Below, in pieces: positions 36,343 through 47,019 of a stretch of DNA of 59,828 bases; the first letter of the stretch is position 1; each line of letters opens with the position of its first letter. Made by a program: the position numbers and the translations under genes. The notes beneath the pieces were generated by a model. The model made no database searches. It worked only from the letters and a program-made list of their open reading frames with translations, and was not told the DNA's origin. Source of the stretch: an uncultured Thermoflexus sp. (lineage in GTDB: Bacteria > Chloroflexota > UBA11872 > UBA12225); the NCBI GenBank assembly GCA_964343985.1, contig CAYFLJ010000002.1:1-59828 (forward strand). Direction: 5' to 3'.

Positions 36343-38969
36343 CGCGTCGCTTTGGTCCTCGGGCCTCGTCCTTCCAACTCGATCAGTTAGACGACGCGTG
36401 GCGAATGGCGTCGGTCGTGGTGGGCAGCAAATCTCCGACCGACCGCATCGGGTTGCGTGGGGCACTCGGACTCGACCTCTCCACAAATGCGCCCCGCGAC
36501 GCCGTGTCGCGCCAGCGTGAGGCGGAGACTATCGAAGCGGCGTGTCGGGCACGTCTTTCGCGACTCGACGGCGCACTCTTGGAACGGCTTCAGCGGATCC
36601 TTGCCAACGGTGCGACGCGGATTGGTCGAATCGTTGACGATGCCGTCGCCGAACGTGCGAGGCGCGGGCTTGGAGGTGCGGGTTCCGACAGCGCGGCCCC
36701 GACCGTTCGTTCTCCGGCCGTCGATGGGTGGGATGTGGGACCCATTGACCAGACGACTGGGCTTCAAGAGGCCAGAGAGCGGACGCCCGTCGATGAACGT
36801 GCGGTCATTCAAGCACTCGGACCGGGCGGCGTCCTTGGCGAAGCGCTCGACGGCTTTTCGGTGCGACCTGGACAAGTCAAGATGGCCCGCGCCGTCACGC
36901 GTGCCGTGAATACCGGTCTGCGCATTCTCGTCGAGGCGGGTACGGGCACTGGCAAGAGTCTGGCCTATCTCATCCCGGCCGCGATGCACGCGATACAGAA
37001 TGGGCGGCGCGTGGTCATCTCGACGCACACCATCGCGTTGCAAGACCAGCTTGTGAACAAGGATGTCCCGGTCTTGCGTCGGGCGCTGTCACTCTCTAAC
37101 GACGGGCCCTCCGGCCCGTGGGATCTCCGAGTCGCCGTCCTGAAAGGGCGCGCAAACTATCTCTGCCTGCGTCGGTGGCGCAGATTTCTGGTGACGAACC
37201 TCGTCGGCGAGACCGAGCGGGTCTTCGCGGCCCGTATCGCCATCTGGCTCACGTTAACGGTCACTGGTGATCGGAACGAACTTGCGCTCGACGATACCGA
37301 GACCGCCATCTGGAACACCCACTTGGCGGCGGACGTCCTGCACTGCACCGGTCGGCTCTGTCCAGAAAATCGATCGGGACGATGTTGGATATCTCGCGCC
37401 CGAAGGCGCGCCGCCGCTGCCCACCTGGTGATCGTGAACCATGCGCTGCTGCTGACAGACCTCGCAACCGCCTCGACCGGTGAACGCGGTGTTCTTCCGG
37501 ACTATGCTGAAGCGATTATCGACGAGGCTCATCACCTTGAGGCCGTGGCGACCGATCATCTCGGGACGGAAATCGCCACGAAGGACCTTGTCACCGCGTT
37601 AGGGGCACTAAGTACTCCGATGGGCGGAGCACGTTTTGGCGGGACCATCTCCCGAATAGCGGCGACGTACGTCGAAGTCGGCGGGCAGTTCGCTCGTGAC
37701 ACGGTAGGCGACTTCACCGCTGAGATACACGCAACCGTCGCCGCAGCTCGAGATTTAGTCGGGCCGTTCCGGGATGCGCTCGGCTCGGTGGCGTCTGGGG
37801 ATTCGAGGCTTCGGCCGGGCGGATCGGTCGGCGACGACGTCGGCGCGCGCGAGGTGCGATTGGTTCCAGAGGTACGAAACGACCCGACGTGGATGGTGGT
37901 TTGCGAAGCGTGGGAGAACCTTGCAGTTGCGCTGAAAGGCGTATCGGACTCGATAGGTCGCTTCAAAGAGGCCTTCGACCCGCATCTCGGTGTGTCCGAG
38001 ACCGTGGATGACGCGGTTATCGAACTGACCGAGGCGATTGCGCTGCTTGACGAGACACGGTCTGTGACGGCGAAGATCGTGCTCGAAGCGAGTGAAGACG
38101 AAGTCGCGTGGGTTAGCCTCGACCGTGCCCCCGCGGGCGCTCAAAGCGTTCCCCGGGAGGTGCGGCTTCACGCGGCGCCGCTACGCGTTGATCGGGAGCT
38201 GCGCGCCTTGCTCTTCGAAGGCCTTGAAGCGGTGGTGTTGACGTCAGCGACACTTCGAGTTGACGGAACATTTCAGAACGCACGGACTCGACTGGGCCTG
38301 GAATCGAACGTGCATGTGCTTGCGGTCGAGTCGCCGTTCGATTACGAGAATCAGGCGCTTCTGGTTGTGCCTCGTGACCTGCCTGACCCGAGTTCGCCCG
38401 CGTCCGCGTCGGTCGTGAACGAGATCTTGGCGGGAATCGGCGAGGCGATGGGTGGCCGCACGCTCGTTCTGTTTACCTCGCACGCTGGCCTTCGAGGGGC
38501 GCACGCCGCGCTCTGCGACGCACTGCCGAACCTTGTTGTTCTTGGGCAAGGCATCGATGGACCGCGCAACGTCTTGCTTGAGCGATTTCGGGAGACGCCG
38601 AACGCAATTCTTCTCGGAACTTCGAGCTTTTGGGAGGGCATCGACGTCACCGGCGAAGCATTGTCTTGTCTGGTCATCGTGAAAATCCCGTTCACGGTTC
38701 CTTCGGATCCGGTGTTTGCGGCGCGGAGCGAACTCCTTGCGGATCCGTTTGACGAGCTTGCGATTCCGCAGGCCGTGGTCAGGATGCGACAAGGCTTCGG
38801 CCGCCTCATTCGGACGACGACTGATCGTGGCGTTGTAGTCGTACTGGACTCGAGGTTGATTAATCGCCGGTATGGCCAGGTGTTTTTTGACTCGCTACCA
38901 CCGGCGACTCGACGCGTATGCGGCGCACGGGAGATCGTGCCGATTGTGGAGGCGTGGTGGGGTCGGTGA
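36339..38969 (+). CDS. dinG: ATP-dependent DNA helicase, DinG/XPD (Rad3) family with Fe-S cluster cysteines
   Basis: Walker A EAGTGTGKSLAY, DEAH box IIDEAHHLE, and Cys pattern YLCLRRW...HCTGRLCPENRSGRCW. A GTG at 36339 gives a GTGA overlap with the rdgB stop; the ORF opens at 36297. Confidence 0.85.
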   Translation: MTRRFGPRASSFQLDQLDDAWRMASVVVGSKSPTDRIGLRGALGLDLSTNAPRDAVSRQREAETIEAACRARLSRLDGALLERLQRILANGATRIGRIVDDAVAERARRGLGGAGSDSAAPTVRSPAVDGWDVGPIDQTTGLQEARERTPVDERAVIQALGPGGVLGEALDGFSVRPGQVKMARAVTRAVNTGLRILVEAGTGTGKSLAYLIPAAMHAIQNGRRVVISTHTIALQDQLVNKDVPVLRRALSLSNDGPSGPWDLRVAVLKGRANYLCLRRWRRFLVTNLVGETERVFAARIAIWLTLTVTGDRNELALDDTETAIWNTHLAADVLHCTGRLCPENRSGRCWISRARRRAAAAHLVIVNHALLLTDLATASTGERGVLPDYAEAIIDEAHHLEAVATDHLGTEIATKDLVTALGALSTPMGGARFGGTISRIAATYVEVGGQFARDTVGDFTAEIHATVAAARDLVGPFRDALGSVASGDSRLRPGGSVGDDVGAREVRLVPEVRNDPTWMVVCEAWENLAVALKGVSDSIGRFKEAFDPHLGVSETVDDAVIELTEAIALLDETRSVTAKIVLEASEDEVAWVSLDRAPAGAQSVPREVRLHAAPLRVDRELRALLFEGLEAVVLTSATLRVDGTFQNARTRLGLESNVHVLAVESPFDYENQALLVVPRDLPDPSSPASASVVNEILAGIGEAMGGRTLVLFTSHAGLRGAHAALCDALPNLVVLGQGIDGPRNVLLERFRETPNAILLGTSSFWEGIDVTGEALSCLVIVKIPFTVPSDPVFAARSELLADPFDELAIPQAVVRMRQGFGRLIRTTTDRGVVVVLDSRLINRRYGQVFFDSLPPATRRVCGAREIVPIVEAWWGR

Positions 38970-39320
38970 TGCGAGAGTCGCGTGGGAGGCCTCTCCCCCA
39001 ATCCATCCGTCTTGCCTGCGTGCGTTCACACTTGGATCGCCTCATTGCTCGGACGGTGTGTCGATACCAACGTGGAGCGGGCCACAATCGTGGAACATGA
39101 GAGGCGGATACGCCACCGGCGAGTTTGCGAACTGCACAAGACGCATACGGCACTTCTGCACGAATTGGGCGCGGTGGGTGGTGACGACCGGGCTCACTCG
39201 GGGCAACGCACATTAAGAAACGCACGTTAGATAGTTCAGAGGCAAGTAGCAGGGGACGCCCGCGGACAACACCGTCCTCATCCCCTCGTCGGTTGCATCG
39301 GGAGGGGCCACGGCGTCTGC

Positions 39321-39326
39321 TATAGT
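39321..39326 (+). promoter_or_regulatory. -10-like hexamer TATAGT exactly 7 nt upstream of the leader-peptide ATG (leaderless-type geometry)
   Basis: TATAGT-gcgcggc-ATG. No good -35 is seen at 17 nt; TTGCAT lies 22 nt upstream. Confidence 0.4.
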
Positions 39327-39333
39327 GCGCGGC

Positions 39334-39423
39334 ATGCAGAGGTCGCTGGTCGCAGCACATCGCTGGGGCATCGTCACGTTTGGTGGCGACAGCTTCTTTT
39401 ATGCATTTCGAAACCCGGTGTGA
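39334..39423 (+). CDS. aromatic-rich leader peptide (29 aa, MQRSLVAAHRWGIVTFGGDSFFYAFRNPV) of the shikimate operon
   Basis: Hand-translated ORF, too short for the ORF track. 6 of 29 codons are Trp/Phe/Tyr, including an FFYAF run. It is followed by an intrinsic terminator and then the DAHP synthase gene. Confidence 0.6.
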   Translation: MQRSLVAAHRWGIVTFGGDSFFYAFRNPV

Positions 39424-39458
39424 GGCACCGGCCGACCACGGCCGTGCGCGCACCGGGC

Positions 39459-39488
39459 AAAGCAGGGGTTACCCCTGCTTTTTTTGTT
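39459..39488 (+). terminator. intrinsic terminator (attenuator) between the leader ORF and DAHP synthase
   Basis: AAAGCAGGGG-TTA-CCCCTGCTTT forms a perfect stem running into a T7 tract. It lies 120 nt upstream of the DAHP synthase ATG. Confidence 0.8.
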
Positions 39489-39607
39489 GCCCTCGGGCAG
39501 CACCTCGGTGACGCGGTCGTGCGGAGATGTGACCCACTCCCAATCCCAAACCGCAAGCCTTGCCCGCTTCGGTGAAATCGGGAAGACAGGAAGGACAGAG
39601 ACGATCG

Positions 39608-40681
39608 ATGATCATCAAGATGGTGCCCGGCGCGAGCGACGCACAGGTCGACGCCGTCGAAGAGCGCATTCGCCATGAGGGCTACGAGCCCCGGACGATC
39701 CGAGGCGTCGGCATGTCGGTGATTGCCGTTGTCGGAAAGCGGCCCGAATACCTCATCGACAAGATCCTCTCGATGTCTGGGGTTGATCAATGCATTCCGA
39801 TCGAGAAGCCGTACAAGCTTGCGGCGCGCGACTTCCAGTCCGGTTGGACAGAAATCCCGATGGGAGAGGCGGTGCTTGGGAGCCAAGACATTACGATCAT
39901 GGCGGGGCCGTGCACCGTGGAGACGCGGGAGCAACTTCTGACGACGGCGCGAGGGGTGAAGGCGCACGGTGCCCACGTGCTGCGCGGTGGTGCGTTCAAG
40001 CCTCGGTCGTCGCCGTACGCGTTCCAGGGCCTTGGCGAAGACGGACTGAAACTCCTTGACGAAGCGCGCGCGCTGTCGGGACTCCCGATCATCACGGAAG
40101 TGATGGAGCCGGGGACGGTCGACGTCGTGCAACGGTACGCCGACGTTCTCCAAATTGGTGCACGAAACTGTCAGAACTACCCGCTTCTCCGGGAGGTTGG
40201 CAAGGCGCGCAAGCCGGTCATGCTGAAACGAGGGCCAAGTGTCACGATTGACGAGTGGATCATGGCGGCTGAATATGTGTTGCATGGTGGAAACATGCAG
40301 GTTATGATGTGTGAGCGTGGCATAAAAACATTTGAAAACTACACTCGCAATACTCTCGACTTATCTGCAATTCCCGCAATCAAGCGCCTGACACACCTTC
40401 CAGTGATTGTTGACCCGAGTCACGGCACAGGCAAATGGCACCTGGTTCGCTCGATGTGTCTGGCGTCGGTGGCGGCCGGTGCCGACGGCGTTCTCATCGA
40501 AGTCCACCCAACGCCGGATACGGCGCTGTGCGACGGCGCGCAATCGTTGACGATTGAGAATTTCGCTACGGCTGCATCAGACATTGCTCGCGTCGCGGTC
40601 GCAGTTGGCAGACGCGTACCGGGCTTTGAGGCCGACGGCACCTTTGTCGGCAGCGGTACGTACACGGCGGTCGCCGGCTGA
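39608..40681 (+). CDS. 3-deoxy-7-phosphoheptulonate (DAHP) synthase, type I-beta with an N-terminal ACT/ferredoxin-like regulatory domain
   Basis: MIIKMVPGASDAQVDAVEERI.. is a Thermotoga-type regulatory domain, followed by the catalytic core ..IMAGPCTVE..LRGGAFKPRSSPYAFQGLG..VDPSHG. Confidence 0.9.
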   Translation: MIIKMVPGASDAQVDAVEERIRHEGYEPRTIRGVGMSVIAVVGKRPEYLIDKILSMSGVDQCIPIEKPYKLAARDFQSGWTEIPMGEAVLGSQDITIMAGPCTVETREQLLTTARGVKAHGAHVLRGGAFKPRSSPYAFQGLGEDGLKLLDEARALSGLPIITEVMEPGTVDVVQRYADVLQIGARNCQNYPLLREVGKARKPVMLKRGPSVTIDEWIMAAEYVLHGGNMQVMMCERGIKTFENYTRNTLDLSAIPAIKRLTHLPVIVDPSHGTGKWHLVRSMCLASVAAGADGVLIEVHPTPDTALCDGAQSLTIENFATAASDIARVAVAVGRRVPGFEADGTFVGSGTYTAVAG

Positions 40682-42099
40682 TGTCATCGCCGAACAGCGC
40701 TCCCCCCACTGCGCTTTCGGCGGGGGCGCGCGCCGTGCGCGCAGTCGGGCGCGTGTCAGGCTCGGTCGAAGTTCCGGGCGATAAGAGCATTACGCATCGG
40801 GCGGTGATGTTCAACGCCCTAGCGGACGGAGTCGCAACTGTTCGGGGCGCCGGTCTCGGTGGGGACTGCCTGTCAACCGCTGACGCCATGCGCGCGTTGG
40901 GCGCGCAGGTCCAGCGATGCTGGCCCACGGGTGCACTCACCGACGATTTGCGTCGAGATCCTGAGACCGGGGCGGACGTACGGGAGGATGCAGTTCTCAT
41001 CGTTCGCGGCGCCGGTGAGTCCGGCTTGTCCGAACCCGTCGACGTGATCGACGCCGGGAACTCAGGGACGACCGCGCGCTTGCTGTCTGGAGTGTTGGCG
41101 GCGCAACCGTTCTTTTCGGTCTTGACGGGGGACGAGAGCCTCCGGTCGCGTCCGATGGGGCGGGTGATCACCCCGCTTCGTTCGATGGGGGCGCGGATTG
41201 AGGCGCGTGCGCGCGGTTCTCTCTTACCGCTCGCCGTTGCGCCTGCCGCGTTGCGAGGCATTCGGTATCAACTACCCGTCGCAAGCGCGCAACTCAAGTC
41301 GGCCCTGATCTTGGCCGGTGTATTTGCAGACGGGGAAACCGTGATCGAGTCGCCAGAGGCGTCTCGCGATCACACTGAGAGACTGCTTGCGGCACAAGGA
41401 GTGGACGTCACGACGGACGGTTCTGGCCTAGCGGTTTGTGTTCGCCCAACAGGTCGGGCATTGAAAGCGGTAGATGTCACGGTTCCGGGGGATATCTCGA
41501 GCGCGGCGTTTTGGTTAGTGGCGGCGTGCATCCATCCTAATGCGCGGGTCACAGTGCGAAACGTCGGCGTTAACCCGTCGCGTACTGGGATCATTGACGC
41601 ATTGCGGGCCATGGGTGCGACGATTGCGGTTGCGAATGAGCGGTCTATTGGTGGTGAACCGGTGGCTGATCTCACGGCCTCGTCAGCCCGTCTGCGCGGG
41701 ATTGGCATTGGCGGCGCCATCGTGCCGAGGCTCGTCGACGAACTGCCGATCCTTGCGATCGCCGCTGCGGTTGCGGAAGGGGCGACGACCGTGTCCGACG
41801 CGGCGGAGTTGCGCGTGAAGGAGAGTGACCGGATCGCGACGGTCGCGAAAGGCCTGGAGGCGTTGGGAGTTCGTGTAACAGAGCGGCCCGACGGCATGAT
41901 CATTGCTGGCAGTGGTCAAATTGGCGGTGGTGAAGTCTCAAGCCACGGCGATCATCGGATCGCCATGGCGTTCGCAATCGGTGGCCTTGTGGCCTCGACA
42001 GCGGTGACGATTGAGGGGGCCGCCGCGGTTGGGATTTCGTACCCAGCGTTCTGGCCGACCCTTGCCCAGATTGCGCCGGGGTCTTTGCGTGAACACTGA
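40681..42099 (+). CDS. aroA: 3-phosphoshikimate 1-carboxyvinyltransferase (EPSP synthase)
   Basis: VPGDKSITHRAVMFNALA.. and a TGATG overlap with the upstream stop. Confidence 0.92.
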   Translation: MSSPNSAPPTALSAGARAVRAVGRVSGSVEVPGDKSITHRAVMFNALADGVATVRGAGLGGDCLSTADAMRALGAQVQRCWPTGALTDDLRRDPETGADVREDAVLIVRGAGESGLSEPVDVIDAGNSGTTARLLSGVLAAQPFFSVLTGDESLRSRPMGRVITPLRSMGARIEARARGSLLPLAVAPAALRGIRYQLPVASAQLKSALILAGVFADGETVIESPEASRDHTERLLAAQGVDVTTDGSGLAVCVRPTGRALKAVDVTVPGDISSAAFWLVAACIHPNARVTVRNVGVNPSRTGIIDALRAMGATIAVANERSIGGEPVADLTASSARLRGIGIGGAIVPRLVDELPILAIAAAVAEGATTVSDAAELRVKESDRIATVAKGLEALGVRVTERPDGMIIAGSGQIGGGEVSSHGDHRIAMAFAIGGLVASTAVTIEGAAAVGISYPAFWPTLAQIAPGSLREH

Positions 42100-42988
42100 A
42101 GCCGTTTCGGCGCACCTCGCTCGGCGGGCTGCCGTGATTGGCTGGCCCCTCGGGCACTCCATCTCCCCAGCGTTCCAACAAGCTGCTTTCGACGCGGTGG
42201 GTCTGCCGGTGACCTATCGAGCGGTGCCGGTGGCTCCCGACGGACTTGAGGCTTTCGTCGCGAGCCTCAAGCACCCGACTGATAACGGGCCAGAATGGCT
42301 CGGTGTCAATGTCACGATTCCGCACAAACAAGCGGTCGCGAACCTAGTGGACGATGTCACCGAAGAGGCCCAGCAAATTGGCGCGGTCAACACGGTGATT
42401 TGCACCAACGGGCGGCTGATCGGGCACAACACTGATGCCATCGGCTTTCTGCGGGCGATGTTAGACCGTGACATCGACCCGGTCGGCATGAGCGCAATCG
42501 TGCTTGGTGCCGGCGGGGCAGCGCGTGCGGTTGCCGTCGGGCTACTTCGGCACGGGGTTACCGAACTTGCCATTGCAAATCGTTCGCCCGAACGGGCCGA
42601 ATCGCTGTGTTGGACCTTGCAGGACAAGTTTCCCCGAGTAGCAGTGAAGCCGCTCCCGCTCGACGCTGGAGTTCTCCGCACGAGGCTTGCGAAAGCGACG
42701 TTGTTGGTAAACACAACGAGTGTGGGGATGCGTGGTGGGCCGGACCCAGACGGTTCTCCCGTTCCCGTCGATGCGCTTTCTGAACGACACATTGTCTATG
42801 ACCTTGTGTACAACCCGCAGATTACCCCGCTGTTGGCAGGCGCATTGGCTGTACGTGCATCCGTCGTTGAAGGTCTGCCAATGCTTGTGCATCAAGGGGC
42901 CGCGAGTTTTGCGCAGTGGACGGCGGTAAATCCGCCGCTCGACGTGATGTTTGCCGCGGCGCGCCGAGCGATTGGACTTGTCTCGTGA
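42089..42988 (+). CDS. aroE: shikimate dehydrogenase
   Basis: VIGWPLGHSISPAFQQAAF and GAGGAARAV. The GTG start overlaps the aroA end by 11 nt. The longer ORF-track start at 42011 lies inside aroA. Confidence 0.88.
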   Translation: MNTEAVSAHLARRAAVIGWPLGHSISPAFQQAAFDAVGLPVTYRAVPVAPDGLEAFVASLKHPTDNGPEWLGVNVTIPHKQAVANLVDDVTEEAQQIGAVNTVICTNGRLIGHNTDAIGFLRAMLDRDIDPVGMSAIVLGAGGAARAVAVGLLRHGVTELAIANRSPERAESLCWTLQDKFPRVAVKPLPLDAGVLRTRLAKATLLVNTTSVGMRGGPDPDGSPVPVDALSERHIVYDLVYNPQITPLLAGALAVRASVVEGLPMLVHQGAASFAQWTAVNPPLDVMFAAARRAIGLVS

Positions 42989-43324
42989 CGGGTCGCGCGC
43001 AGGGGTAGCATCCTTCGAACCGTGCCTTGTGCCGACGTCAATCCGATTGCTATCGCACTCCGGTCGTCACCGCTGAAATGCCCCTCCGCCGAGTTCGACG
43101 GACCTCGACCCACCATTCAGACGGGATGGGTCGGGCGCGCGGCGGGTCGGGAAGCCTTCGGCCCAGTCTCGGAACTTCCATGGCTTTGAGAGACACGATA
43201 AGCGCCATCGAAGTGCTACCGGAGATTGCAACCGGAAAGGTCGTGATTGAACCGTGGTGGTTGGTGTTTCTCGGCCATTCGCACTGGCTACCCTTTGCGT
43301 CGTAGAGGCAAGGCGATCATAGTC

Positions 43325-44470
43325 ATGGGAAACACCACCGGCTCCATCTTTCGGGTGACGACATGGGGCGAGAGCCACGGTAGAGCGATCGGTGCAGTCA
43401 TCGACGGGTGCCCACCGCTCTTGCCCCTGACTGAGGCCGACATCCAACCAGACCTTGACCGTCGTGCGCCGGGCCAATCCGCAATCGTGACGCAACGCAA
43501 GGAGACCGACACCGTCCAGATTCTTTCCGGAACGTTTGACGGTGTCACCCTTGGAACCCCGATCAGCCTCTTGATCCCAAATGAGGACCAACGCAGCAAC
43601 GACTATCGGGACGTCGAGCGGAAGTATCGACCGTCACATGCTGACTTCACCTACGACGCCAAATACGGAACGCGTGATTATCGGGGTGGTGGGCGAACGT
43701 CGGCTCGTGAGACGGCGGCTCGGGTCGGTGCGGGTGCGATTGCTCGAAAACTCCTCGCACGTGCCTACGGCGTCGAGATCGTGGCGTGGGTGGCTGCGGT
43801 GCGCGACATCGCCGGGGACGCAGACCCCGCGACTGTCACCCGAGAGGCGGTTGATCAGACCATTGTTCGCTGCCCCGACCTTGATGCGGCGGCCCGCATG
43901 GTTGACGCAATTCAGGCGGCACGCAAGGACGGCGACTCGCTCGGTGGCGTGGTTGGGTGTGTGGTCCGAGGGTGCCCTGCCGGTTGGGGTGCGCCAGTTT
44001 TTGATCGTTTGGAGGCGGACCTTGCGGGGGCGATGTTGAGCCTGCCAGCGACCAAGGGGTTTGAGATTGGTTCAGGTTTCGCCGGATCGCAGATGACCGG
44101 GTTAGCACATAACGATCTGTTTTATATGGACGCCGGTCGCGTGCGGACGCGCACGAATCGAAGTGGAGGGGTTCAAGGGGGGATCACTAACGGCGAAGCG
44201 GTTGAGTTTCGGGTCGCATTCAAACCGGTTGCGACCGTCATGCGCGAGCAAGCGACTGTCACTCGGGATGGCGTGGATGCGACGATTGCGGGCAGAGGCC
44301 GCCACGATCCGTGCGTCCTGCCACGAGCCGTCGCTCTCGTCGAAGCGATGGCGGCGTTGGTCTTCGCCGACCATGCACTTCGTCACGCGGCCGTCGCCCC
44401 GCTCGAGGTGACGGAAACGACGTCATCTGGCTGGGGATGGGGGCGGTTCCCCGACGGCGGCGACCAATGA
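43325..44470 (+). CDS. aroC: chorismate synthase
   Basis: [19 protein letters not shown].., [14 protein letters not shown]. Confidence 0.93.
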
Positions 44471-45096
44471 ATTACCACCACGTCATTCTCGTTGGCCTGT
44501 CGGGCAGTGGTAAGTCGACGATTGGGCCGCGACTAGCTCGTCGGCTTGATCTCCTTTTTGTCGACACCGATCGGAGCGTTGTCGCGCGTGCTGGTAAGCC
44601 GATCGAGGAGATTTTTGCAACCGCGGGAGAATCAACGTTCCGGGCGTTTGAACGCGAGGCGGTGCGCGAGGCGGTAGCTGGGCCACGGGCGGTCATATCA
44701 ACGGGAGCTGGTGCGCCGATCGACCACACGAACCGAGCGTTGCTGTGGGAGGAGAATGTCGTTGTTTGGCTTGATGCCCCGCTTGAGGTGCTTGTGACGC
44801 GCCTCGGGCGGTCAGACCGTCCCGGACGCGAGCGGCGACCGCTTCTCAACGGCGATGCCGCGGCTCGTCTACCCGCGCTGCTTGATGCGCGTCGGCCGAT
44901 TTACGAGACCGCGCACGTCCGCGTAGGCACAGGGACTGCGCGTCCGGACGTCGTGGTCTCGGACATTCTGCGTCGGATTAATCCGCAGCCAACACCGACG
45001 AGGCGAAGCGCTGCGCGCGACGCCACCCTTCGCGGTGGGAATGTCCTTCCATTGACCCATCGGGTGGTGCCGGACGGAGAGGACAACGGTTCGTGA
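44467..45096 (+). CDS. aroK: shikimate kinase
   Basis: [15 protein letters not shown]-loop and an ATGA overlap with the aroC stop. Confidence 0.88.
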
Positions 45097-46199
45097 GGAT
45101 CGATTACCTGCCGCCGCCGCCGGTAGTGCATGATGCCCCGGAACATTCCACACGATTGCGCTTCGGAAACGGCATCGTCGAAGGCCTGGGGCACGAGATT
45201 CGCGCGTTGGGCCTCGCCGGGAGAGCCTTCGTCGTGGCGGATGAAGCGGTGGCCCGGTCGCACGGAGTGGCCGTGGAGGCGTCTCTCGCGACTGCCGGGC
45301 TGCGACCAGTCGTCACGACCTTCGCGTCTGGTGAGGGATCGAAATCGCTTGAGACCGCGAGTGCGCTGTACGCGTGGTTGGCATCGCATCGCGCCGAACG
45401 ACGCGATTGCATTGTGGCGGTAGGCGGCGGTGTCGCGGGGGATCTGGCAGGTTTCGTTGCGGCGACCTGGTTGCGGGGGGTGCCGCTAATTCAGGTTCCG
45501 ACGACTGTGCTTTCGATGGTTGACAGTTCGGTAGGCGGGAAGACGGCGGTCAACCTGCCTTCCGGCAAAAACCTTGTTGGCGCCTTTCACCCGCCTGTGC
45601 TGACGTTCCTCGACGTACAGATGATTCGTGACCTTCCACATCGCGAGATTCGAGCCGGTTGGGCGGAGGTGATCAAGACGGCGGCGATATTCGATCCACG
45701 ACTGTTCACTGATTTGGAGGGGCGTGACCCCACCACGATTGACAAGGACGAGTTGGCACGCATTCTCGAAATCGTTGTCCGGTGGAAGGAGCGGACTGTC
45801 GTCTCGGACCCTCGAGAGCGGGGCGTCCGCGTCGTCCTGAACTTTGGTCATACGATTGGGCACGCGTTGGAAGCAACGGCAGGGTACGGATCGTTCTTGC
45901 ACGGTGAGGCCGTTGCCGTCGGCATGATCGTGGCATCACGGTTGAGCGTTCGTGACGCCGGGCTTGACCCAGAGATTTGTACGCGACTTGAGCGCGCAAT
46001 CGAGGCATCGGGATTACCGGTGCGGCTTCGGGCGGGTTCCCCGAGCGTAGACACGATTCTCTACCAGACGGGCGTTGACAAAAAAGTTGAAGCGGGGCGT
46101 GTACGGTGGGTGCTGCTCAGCGACCTCGGTCGCGTTGTCGTGACCGATGAGATTGATCCGGGTGTCGTACGCACCGTTCTGGACGAGATTTGCCACTGA
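45093..46199 (+). CDS. aroB: 3-dehydroquinate synthase
   Basis: GGGVAGDLAGFVAATWLRGVPLIQVPTTVLSMVDSSVGGKTAVN and a GTGA overlap with the aroK stop. Confidence 0.92.
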   Translation: MRIDYLPPPPVVHDAPEHSTRLRFGNGIVEGLGHEIRALGLAGRAFVVADEAVARSHGVAVEASLATAGLRPVVTTFASGEGSKSLETASALYAWLASHRAERRDCIVAVGGGVAGDLAGFVAATWLRGVPLIQVPTTVLSMVDSSVGGKTAVNLPSGKNLVGAFHPPVLTFLDVQMIRDLPHREIRAGWAEVIKTAAIFDPRLFTDLEGRDPTTIDKDELARILEIVVRWKERTVVSDPRERGVRVVLNFGHTIGHALEATAGYGSFLHGEAVAVGMIVASRLSVRDAGLDPEICTRLERAIEASGLPVRLRAGSPSVDTILYQTGVDKKVEAGRVRWVLLSDLGRVVVTDEIDPGVVRTVLDEICH

Positions 46200-46269: not shown

Positions 46270-47019
46270 ATGGTTGCAGCGCTTCCTGGTATTCGCATCG
46301 GCGCGACGTTGTCCATGGAGGCCGATGATCCGGCCCTCGGCGCAGACTCGTACAAGTGCCGCATTGAGGACTTCAAAGATGAGCGGCTGTGGCTAACGTG
46401 GCCCGCGAAACGAGGCCAAGCCGTAAAGCTGCAACTTGACGATTCTGTGTCGTTGGCACTGGCGCAGACCGCACCAAATGGGCAACCTGAAGCAACGCTG
46501 TATCTCGACTGCATTGTGGTCGACCGCTTGGTGCCGACCCCGCAGAACCCCGTCCCGCAGGTGGTTGTGCGTGTGGTTGCGGCTGGGCGCCAAGCCCCGC
46601 GCGGGTCGTACCGTCTCCCCGTGCACATGCCGCTGACCGACGTCGCGGTGAAGGTGTCGTCGTATGGGACGACTACGTGGAAACCAGTCGCGGCGTTTAT
46701 TCACGACATCAGCGCTGGCGGTCTCGGGATCACTTCAGACGAAGAGGTTGCGCAGGGTCTAAAAATGCGTGTGCGATTCCCTGTACCAGCGGGTTCTGGT
46801 GAAATGTCCGTCACCGTTGAGGTCATGAATGTGACTGATGTGTCACCGGGTGAACGGCTTTCAAAATACAAGCTGGGTGTGAAGTTTGACGACGCTACAC
46901 AGCAGCAGCGAGAGAGAATGGCGCGTGCAATTCATAGGGCGCAACTAGAGAACCGTCGTCGCGATCAAATCGCAGGCAAGATTGACCGGAGTGACGAACC
47001 GGAGGCACCAGCGACGTAG
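46270..47019 (+). CDS. PilZ-domain c-di-GMP receptor with a YcgR-like N-terminal domain
   Basis: RQAPRGSYR (RxxxR) and DISAGGLGI (DxSxxG) are PilZ motifs in the C-terminal half. The N-terminal half resembles PilZN. Confidence 0.75.
   Translation: MVAALPGIRIGATLSMEADDPALGADSYKCRIEDFKDERLWLTWPAKRGQAVKLQLDDSVSLALAQTAPNGQPEATLYLDCIVVDRLVPTPQNPVPQVVVRVVAAGRQAPRGSYRLPVHMPLTDVAVKVSSYGTTTWKPVAAFIHDISAGGLGITSDEEVAQGLKMRVRFPVPAGSGEMSVTVEVMNVTDVSPGERLSKYKLGVKFDDATQQQRERMARAIHRAQLENRRRDQIAGKIDRSDEPEAPAT

Follow-up and report, generated by a model that had tools for sequence, protein, structure and literature searches.

The aro operon for aromatic amino acid biosynthesis of an uncultured Thermoflexus sp. 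(Chloroflexota) is preceded by a leader element which is probably a ribosome-mediated transcription attenuator, sensing the supply of aromatic aminoacyl-tRNAs. The element was found in a stretch of 59,828 nucleotides (nt) of contig CAYFLJ010000002.1 (positions 1 to 59,828, forward strand), which in its full length is called the window here. It consists of a short open reading frame (ORF) rich in aromatic codons, a hairpin at the stop codon of this ORF and an intrinsic terminator in front of the DAHP synthase gene. The leader element is real and conserved, and a regulatory role is almost certain. Four sequence-level features of the leader-peptide attenuator class are present; the antiterminator of that class was not found.

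The leader element and its operon

The leader ORF (39334..39423, forward strand) has 29 codons followed by UGA and encodes MQRSLVAAHRWGIVTFGGDSFFYAFRNPV, with one Trp, four Phe and one Tyr codon. The putative regulatory run is UUC UUU UAU GCA UUU (39394..39408, forward strand), which corresponds to F21-F22-Y23-A24-F25 (FFYAF). As leader-peptide attenuators require, the ORF is placed between a promoter element, the extended -10 TGCTATAGT (39318..39326, forward strand; TATAGT at 39321-39326 with a preceding TG), and the first structural gene, the DAHP synthase gene (ATG 39608). The gap between TATAGT and the leader ATG is 7 nt, and no Shine-Dalgarno sequence is found within 14 nt 5' of this ATG. 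The extended -10 predicts a transcription start at about 39333-39334 and with it a leaderless mRNA, and from this promoter spacing a leaderless or near-leaderless translation of the ORF can reasonably be expected. The ORF, its aromatic codons and the TATAGT box agree with a preliminary description of the same DNA, all elements of which are present at the positions it gave.

The operon (39608..46199, forward strand) comprises the genes for DAHP synthase, aroA, aroE, aroC, aroK and aroB, whose products were assigned by Pfam (E-values 1e-24 to 1e-135) as DAHP synthase, EPSP synthase, shikimate dehydrogenase, chorismate synthase, shikimate kinase and DHQ synthase. The preliminary description had called it the whole common shikimate operon. 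The gene order given there is correct, the operon covers however six of the seven common steps of the aromatic pathway, and a dehydroquinase gene (aroD/aroQ) was not found anywhere in the window with the query sequences used. Similarly, the enzyme described as an ACT-domain DAHP synthase does have an N-terminal regulatory domain, but the Pfam match of this domain is DAHP_snth_FXD (ferredoxin-like) and not ACT as such. The catalytic domain is of type Iβ.

In its minimum free energy (MFE) fold the window leader is a stable RNA of three domains ending in a strong terminator, and the RNA 39328-39490 (163 nt) has a folding z-score of -5.7 against shuffled sequences. The 5' domain (39334..39406, forward strand; -31.6 kcal/mol, z = -4.0) is formed by AUGCAGAGG at the start codon and the aromatic-codon region CUUCU..UAUGCAU, which pair with each other around two small hairpins. 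The second domain, which we call the sensor hairpin (39414..39457, forward strand; -33.9 kcal/mol), begins 5 nt 3' of the last Phe codon. Its strand A (CCCGGUGUG, 39414-39422) includes the final two sense codons and reaches into the UGA stop (39421), strand B is CGCACCGGG (39449-39457), and an inner hairpin lies at 39425-39447. The base of the terminator is found 1 nt from the end of the sensor hairpin.

This intrinsic terminator, AAAGCAGGGG-UUA-CCCCUGCUUU plus U7 (39459..39485, forward strand; U-tract 39479-39485), has a perfect stem of 10 base pairs (bp; 39459-39468 / 39472-39481) and the loop UUA. The perfect stem and the T-run had been recognized before; the stem starts 35 nt after the leader stop codon. 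The DAHP synthase gene starts 119-120 nt 3' of the terminator, in line with the earlier figure of about 120 nt. In the window nothing resembling a promoter was found from the terminator to the DAHP synthase ATG, and this lack of any other expression route supports an attenuator.

Both signals are rare in the window. A scan of both strands over all 59,828 bases (stem of at least 7 bp, at most one mismatch, T-rich tail) revealed the leader terminator as the sole strong canonical intrinsic terminator; evidently the ordinary gene ends of this organism do not use this signal. At least four aromatic residues within five occur in 7 out of 107,207 five-residue segments of the six-frame translation, which belong to four loci. 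FFYAF is the only such run outside a long gene, the other three loci being inside ORFs of at least 350 amino acids (350, 693 and more). The rarity of terminator and aromatic run argues for an attenuator as well. No Rfam family, including Phe_leader, Trp_leader, His_leader, Leu/phe leader and T-box, reached its gathering score in the window, and with E-values up to 10 only chance matches to the terminator were obtained for 38900-39700.

Conservation in related genomes

With the DAHP synthase protein 80 species-level genome loci were recovered, which are nearly all labelled Chloroflexota, with a few Rokubacteria/Methylomirabilota. The closest DAHP synthase (96% identity) is from a metagenome-assembled genome of an uncultured member of the Chloroflexi. 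The 450 nt 5' of the DAHP synthase gene were searched for leaders in each of the 80 loci, which are designated by L numbers below. In about 40 of the 80, from the Chloroflexota and in some cases the Methylomirabilota/Rokubacteria, the DAHP synthase gene is preceded by a small ORF with an aromatic run and, behind this ORF, by a terminator. Aromatic run and terminator are thus conserved among orthologous aro leaders, and the core of the preliminary description, a probably leaderless aromatic leader peptide which together with a terminator controls the aro operon, has strong comparative evidence on its side. The layout shared by these loci consists of a promoter 7-13 nt before the start codon, no Shine-Dalgarno sequence, an ORF of 11-33 codons, a hairpin at the stop codon and a canonical terminator. 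The leader element is not present at the Anaerolineae and Ardenticatenaceae loci. A promoter of the form TTGAC[AG]-17/18-TANNNT at the distance mentioned and without visible Shine-Dalgarno sequence was found in 29 of 41 leaders, and such a promoter directly before the start codon is a further support for the attenuator.

The leaders of the window clade end with ...FFYAFRNPV, VYFGFSIPV, SFYFFSTPV, YFHFFSTPV, WYYYFSRPV, WYYWFMTPV or YWYWFSEPV, in each case followed by the stop codon. Further types are AYYFSRFGVTPG and AYSYWFTSRVTGLRRER (both up to the stop), MTYGFYYFSGG..., the 11-codon leader MSRYFYFRCPA of the Limnocylindria, and in the Rokubacteria leaders ending with GFFYFYFYAEVRPPALT. The aromatic runs of the relatives comprise FFYAF, VYFGF, SFYFF, YFHFF, WYYYF, WYYWF, YWYWF, YYF, YFYF and FFYFYFY. 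They stay aromatic although the codons vary: F, Y and W are interchanged, and UUU/UUC as well as UAU/UAC alternate, while the N-terminal part of the peptide diverges freely. It is hence the amino acid class which is kept and not the nucleotides, which is the signature of a translated regulatory leader and not of a structured non-coding RNA. The conservation of the ORF and of its aromatic run through such exchanges and synonymous changes, with the rest of the peptide drifting, is a main support for the attenuator. The window clade and the Limnocylindria type share in addition the ending F-x-x-P-V/A-stop, i.e. two codons, a conserved Pro, one codon and the stop.

All 16 tabulated leaders outside the Rokubacteria have UUU as the final codon of the run. 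A sensing of rare codons by this UUU was rejected, because TTT and TTC are used about equally in the genes of the window (55:59).

A comparison of the window with L001, whose DAHP synthases are 96% identical, localizes the constraint. The block 39392-39501, which includes the aromatic run, the hairpin, the terminator and a small hairpin behind it, shows 88% nucleotide identity. Leader codons 1-20 reach only 59%, the promoter region 46% and the remaining spacer 21%. The selective constraint on 39392-39501 likewise speaks for an attenuator. In an alignment of the 11 members of the window clade the sensor stem CCCGGUGUG:CGCACCGGG is kept as a 9-bp helix in 11 of 11, nearly invariant in sequence, with one compensatory change from G:C to A:U in L008, which goes along with a change of the stop from UGA to UAA. 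The inner hairpin of the sensor varies freely. The terminator is conserved in the relatives, with two compensatory positions in the same alignment.

In all types but the Rokubacteria the aromatic run is followed after 1-8 nt (mostly 4-5) by the stop-codon hairpin and, after a further 0-4 nt, by the terminator. Folding of the sequence 3' of the last aromatic codon gave just two top-level hairpins in each of these types, and the stop codon lies in, or just 3' of, the 5' strand of the sensor hairpin. This recurrent architecture of run, hairpin and terminator adds to the support.

The Limnocylindria leaders with their 11-codon ORFs lack any 5' domain, and only about 45 nt, ribosome-binding site included, lie between the terminator and the DAHP synthase gene, so that the gene can be expressed only by way of the terminator. 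A small hairpin, GGCAC-RGGUC-GUGCC, is conserved in these leaders and competes with the sensor stem for strand B. In the adjacency model discussed below it would slow down the re-formation of the sensor once the ribosome has left, which fits that idea. In the L034 type, which belongs to the Limnocylindria, the U-tract and 3' terminator arm CCUCUGCUUUUUUGUU are complementary (G:U, A:U) to the ribosome-binding site GACGAGGAG of DAHP synthase about 25 nt 3' of the terminator, a pairing which could add translational control in read-through transcripts.

A scan of metagenomes with the pattern CCGGTGTGAN{20,50}GCACCGGG gave chance matches only among the at least 120 matches listed.

Proposed coupling of ribosome position to termination

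The direction of a possible regulation is suggested by the Rokubacteria/Methylomirabilota type (L039, L042, L074). These leaders have in common with the window the gene context, the lack of a Shine-Dalgarno sequence, the aromatic run and a first hairpin with the stop codon; their promoter lies 12-13 nt before the start codon. In contrast to the window they contain an extra segment, CCCGCGGCC, which pairs with the 5' terminator arm. For ribosome-masked folding, the nascent RNA up to the terminator loop was folded with 28 nt masked at each codon, considering thermodynamic and nested structures only. The E. coli trpL control gave the antiterminator at the Trp codons, as expected. In L039 a ribosome that has come no further than the aromatic codons allows the first hairpin to fold, and CCCGCGGCC joins the 5' terminator arm in an antiterminator; a ribosome at the stop codon melts the first hairpin, and CCCGCGGCC is taken up by an anti-antiterminator. 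The antiterminator is the MFE state in L039 and L074 even with the full terminator included. Judged by these folds, the Rokubacteria type can be read as a classical attenuator logic of five segments. It follows from this logic that a stalled ribosome leaves the first hairpin intact in these leaders and that an intact hairpin means read-through, which supports the same direction of regulation in the window.

The geometry of the window is as in the Rokubacteria type. When the UUU of F25 (39406) occupies the A site, the distance from the first P-site nucleotide to the first pair of the hairpin (39414) is 11 nt. Stalls at F21-Y23 are further 5' of the hairpin, and by the time a ribosome has come to UGA 39421, it must have opened strand A. 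Takyar, Hickerson and Noller reportedly placed the action of the ribosomal helicase, in 2005, at 11 nt from the first P-site nucleotide.

The following mechanism is proposed for the attenuator of the window. Transcription from the extended -10 would start at, or 1 nt before, AUG 39334, and a 70S ribosome would enter at the 5' end of the transcript and translate the 29 codons of the leader. With an ample supply of charged tRNA-Phe and tRNA-Tyr, perhaps also of tRNA-Trp, the ribosome would reach UGA 39421 inside the 5' strand of the sensor and melt the hairpin, and RNA polymerase would terminate at 39459-39485. If the charged tRNAs are scarce, the ribosome would stall in F21-F22-Y23-A24-F25 just 5' of the hairpin, the sensor hairpin would stay folded and a larger share of polymerases would continue into the DAHP synthase gene. 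The analysis shows the parts, their conservation and spacing, and the ribosome positions that spare the hairpin; that the ORF is translated, in which direction the operon is regulated and, most of all, how the intact hairpin leads to read-through is what we infer here.

This step could be explained by adjacency. A stable GC-rich helix flush with the base of the terminator might hinder the closure of the lowest terminator pairs, by means of a few competing pairs (last UUU with the AAA of the terminator) and/or by crowding at the exit channel of the polymerase. Upon melting of the sensor hairpin the terminator would gain a free single-stranded 5' flank. A 3-bp UUU:AAA contact between the last aromatic codon and the opening AAA of the terminator is possible in such a model. 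We infer an adjacency coupling of this kind as a possible, though not a probable, solution. An attenuator that works altogether without an RNA antiterminator, in which the hairpin, reaching from the mRNA entrance of a ribosome with the last Phe codon in its A site to the terminator base, relays the ribosome position, is put forward tentatively and seems rather doubtful; here the tethered stalled ribosome could also sit close enough to clash with the polymerase.

Several points weigh against an attenuator in the window. Masked folding of the window clade, with ribosomes placed on the aromatic codons, leaves the 5' terminator arm nearly unpaired (ddG 0 to -2.5 kcal/mol), and no antiterminator sharing terminator nucleotides was found there by the method that recovers those of E. 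coli trpL and L039. An exhaustive search of the window-clade alignment for helices of at least 5 bp found the sensor stem and the terminator only. The pyrimidine-rich aromatic run can pair with the purine-rich 5' terminator arm, but shuffled runs of equal composition do so just as well (fraction at least as good 0.11-0.99). The MFE fold holds the sensor hairpin and the terminator together, so that thermodynamics alone predicts termination in both ribosome states. A good -35 is absent from the leader promoter of the window, and we know of no precedent for an adjacency coupling.

A number of candidate switches were tried and rejected. The preliminary description had proposed mutually exclusive folds of CCCGGTG (39414-39420) with CACCGG (39426-39431) or with CACCGGG (39451-39457). 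The three motifs are present, but neither pairing involves the terminator arms, so they do not serve as an antiterminator; in CCGGUG (39415-20) : CACCGG (39426-31) the partner is moreover unconserved in the relatives (L001, L003-L008, L013, L014). The aromatic run pairs with the 5' terminator arm in some MFE folds, extending the sensor hairpin outward (L002, L004, L034, L047). As a specific antiterminator strand it was rejected, being no better than shuffles and the strand that a stalled ribosome would cover. The 5' end AUGCAGAGG resembles the 5' terminator arm, and a capture of the 3' arm by it has the right logic; it was rejected because 7 of 9 pairs over 140 nt are weak against a perfect local hairpin and because no such 5' segment exists in the Limnocylindria. 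In the Limnocylindria the joint GGGGCACRGGUC could pair with the 3' terminator arm while the sensor is formed, but it cannot outcompete the adjacent 5' arm and has no equivalent in the window.

A frameshift upon starvation, by which the ribosome would pass the stop and run through the terminator, was rejected too, the +1 frame being open in only 22 and the -1 frame in 10 of 40 leaders. In the window the +1 frame is open through the terminator (ORF 39380-39511); L013 and L077 have an immediate +1 stop. Four leaders (L003, L004, L005, L007; e.g. L004:2810-2830) hold in their run the slippery heptamer U UUU UUU A with a stable hairpin 5 nt later, which is the geometry of a -1 frameshift site. The -1 shift meets UAG at once, and the heptamer is absent from the window.

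The most serious rival is a classical attenuator whose RNA antiterminator was missed, as a hidden kinetic structure that exists only during transcription, as a pseudoknot, or as a species-specific long-range pairing with the 5' domain. The folding was restricted to thermodynamic and nested structures, the Rokubacteria-type leaders do use an explicit antiterminator, and the masked folds of L004 and L040 pair the 5' terminator arm with the 5' domain (-5 to -8 kcal/mol). However, these long-range pairings differ by species and arise in the wrong state, when the ribosome stands on the stop codon or close to it, and the 11-codon Limnocylindria leaders have no 5' domain to pair with. Moreover, no conserved helix of at least 5 bp touches either terminator arm in the window clade, and the other conserved terminator-arm pairings of the Limnocylindria alignment are short, G:U-rich and formed by purine-rich against pyrimidine-rich strands. 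We therefore regard a missed antiterminator as unlikely, yet as an explanation to be kept in mind.

Much less probable is a unit of its own, a small gene or small RNA with promoter and terminator, behind which the aro genes would be constitutive, by leakage or by a promoter of their own, and would not sense aromatic amino acids. A stable three-domain MFE fold ending in a strong terminator and the failure to find an antiterminator would suit such a gene. It leaves unexplained, however, why the aromatic run alone of the peptide is conserved, why the element keeps its fixed place before DAHP synthase in several classes and two phyla, and why the stop codon always lies within the hairpin; the aro genes have no promoter-like site 3' of the terminator, and in the Limnocylindria type there is no room for one. 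Least probable of all is a non-translated cis-regulatory RNA (riboswitch, T-box or protein-binding leader) with an incidental ORF. In its favour, the leader RNA is highly structured, and the sensor strands are invariant in the clade beyond the needs of pairing. Against it, a relaxed Rfam search with E-values up to 10 matched no family, the amino acid class and not the nucleotide sequence is conserved 5' of the hairpin, in most lineages the ORF begins where transcription is predicted to start, and the hairpin varies most in its inner part, the expected place of a ligand pocket.

Relation to known attenuators and neighbouring features

The attenuator proposed for the window joins the known leader-peptide attenuators by its parts; its architecture is unusual and may or may not reflect another coupling mechanism. 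The preliminary description had regarded mixed aromatic codons before the aromatic pathway, the leaderless RNA and the combination with a regulated DAHP synthase as unprecedented. With the Corynebacterium glutamicum and Deinococcus deserti systems described in the following, all three features have precedents.

The attenuators analysed by Neshat et al. in 2014 (J Biotechnol 190:55) are reportedly all leaderless. For C. glutamicum, the passages on aroR in PMC4046766 describe an F-Y-F leader peptide 5' of the DAHP synthase gene aroF, and a review (PMC11802643, citing Neshat et al. 2014) states in its account of aroR-aroF that read-through goes up under Phe limitation and that Tyr supply is without effect. 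Mixed aromatic codons before DAHP synthase are, to go by these accounts, not new. As in the window, a short leader peptide of mixed aromatic residues stands before the DAHP synthase gene, so that the kind of switch and the metabolic step are the same, and this precedent supports the attenuator. The match is one of functional layout, with aroR known by its description and the leaderlessness of the window suggested by promoter spacing. The two differ in phylum (Actinomycetota versus Chloroflexota) and in the class of DAHP synthase, the enzyme of the window being of type Iβ with an FXD domain and heading a six-gene operon.

For D. deserti, 14 leader peptides are reported in the main text of de Groot et al. 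2014 (PMC4007540) on transcripts whose 5' end is the start codon itself or lies no more than 1 nt from it, which takes away the novelty of leaderless leader peptides. Like the proposed reading in the window, they are read from the 5' end of the transcript, and they precede genes for amino acid biosynthesis and tRNA synthetases. No aromatic or shikimate case appears in that main text.

With pheL-pheA and trpL-trpEDCBA of E. coli the window shares the run of product codons in the leader ORF, the terminator before the first structural gene and the read-out of the ribosome position. In contrast to the window, pheL and trpL have a Shine-Dalgarno sequence and a 5' untranslated region (5' UTR). Their regulatory codons lie inside segment 1 of the 1:2 / 2:3 / 3:4 scheme, so that a stalled ribosome masks segment 1; in the window the codons lie 5' of the hairpin, a stalled ribosome spares it and no equivalent of 2:3 was found. 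About 20 nt separate the 1:2 hairpin from the terminator in E. coli, whereas in the window the hairpin abuts the terminator.

No description of an aro leader from the Chloroflexi was found in the open literature, although an earlier prediction may exist, and the leader family is absent from Rfam. Mixed F/Y/W leader peptides with little or no 5' UTR before DAHP synthase are not an oddity of Corynebacterium. For aromatic amino acid synthesis, the element provides a concrete candidate regulator, open to experimental test, of the entry point and of six of the seven common steps, in several classes of the Chloroflexota and in the Methylomirabilota, which are mostly uncultured and whose gene regulation is almost unknown. 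If confirmed, the layout of two hairpins without a recognisable antiterminator could reveal another way in which a stalled ribosome suppresses termination, and if the antiterminator-free reading were true, this would be a new coupling of translation to termination. For annotation, the element points to an unannotated small ORF and to a regulated terminator, a signal which could otherwise be misread as the end of a transcription unit.

The leader RNA has further features outside the sensor and the terminator. The 73-nt 5' domain is closed by a helix of 39334-39342 with 39393-39406, i.e. of the start-codon region with the aromatic run. The same closing helix is found in the MFE folds of L001-L007 and L014, where it is formed from differing sequences (AUGGAC:GUCUAU, GAAGG:CCUUC). 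In these folds it might limit the loading of ribosomes to a co-transcriptional window of time.

Right after the U-tract a small hairpin, GUUGCC-CUCG-GGCAGC (39486..39501, forward strand), ends the strongly conserved block. It is kept in L001 and L002 (GUUGCC-UCCA-GGCAAC), and GUUGCCC is near-invariant across the window clade. Part of it, UUGCCC (39487-39492), is complementary to GGGCAA at the junction of sensor hairpin and terminator (39455-39460). This pairing, possible only in read-through transcripts, is held with G:U changes in L001, L002, L008, L013 and L014 and is weaker in L003-L007. Also 3' of the terminator, CUCGGUG (39505-39511) almost repeats sensor strand A and might bind strand B (CACCGGG) in transcripts that read through.

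The gene 5' of the leader encodes a DinG-like helicase according to Pfam and ends at 38969. The order helicase, leader and aro operon is syntenic in the relatives, but the spacer between helicase and leader is not conserved; the about 350 nt from the helicase stop to the leader promoter (38970-39317) show no conservation at the nucleotide level in syntenic relatives. An antisense ORF of 197 amino acids (38860-39453) and sense ORFs within 38872-39230 gave no Pfam match and are treated as spurious. At the other end of the operon, 70 nt after aroB and on the same strand, a gene for a PilZ-domain protein (46270-47019) is found, which resembles c-di-GMP receptors.

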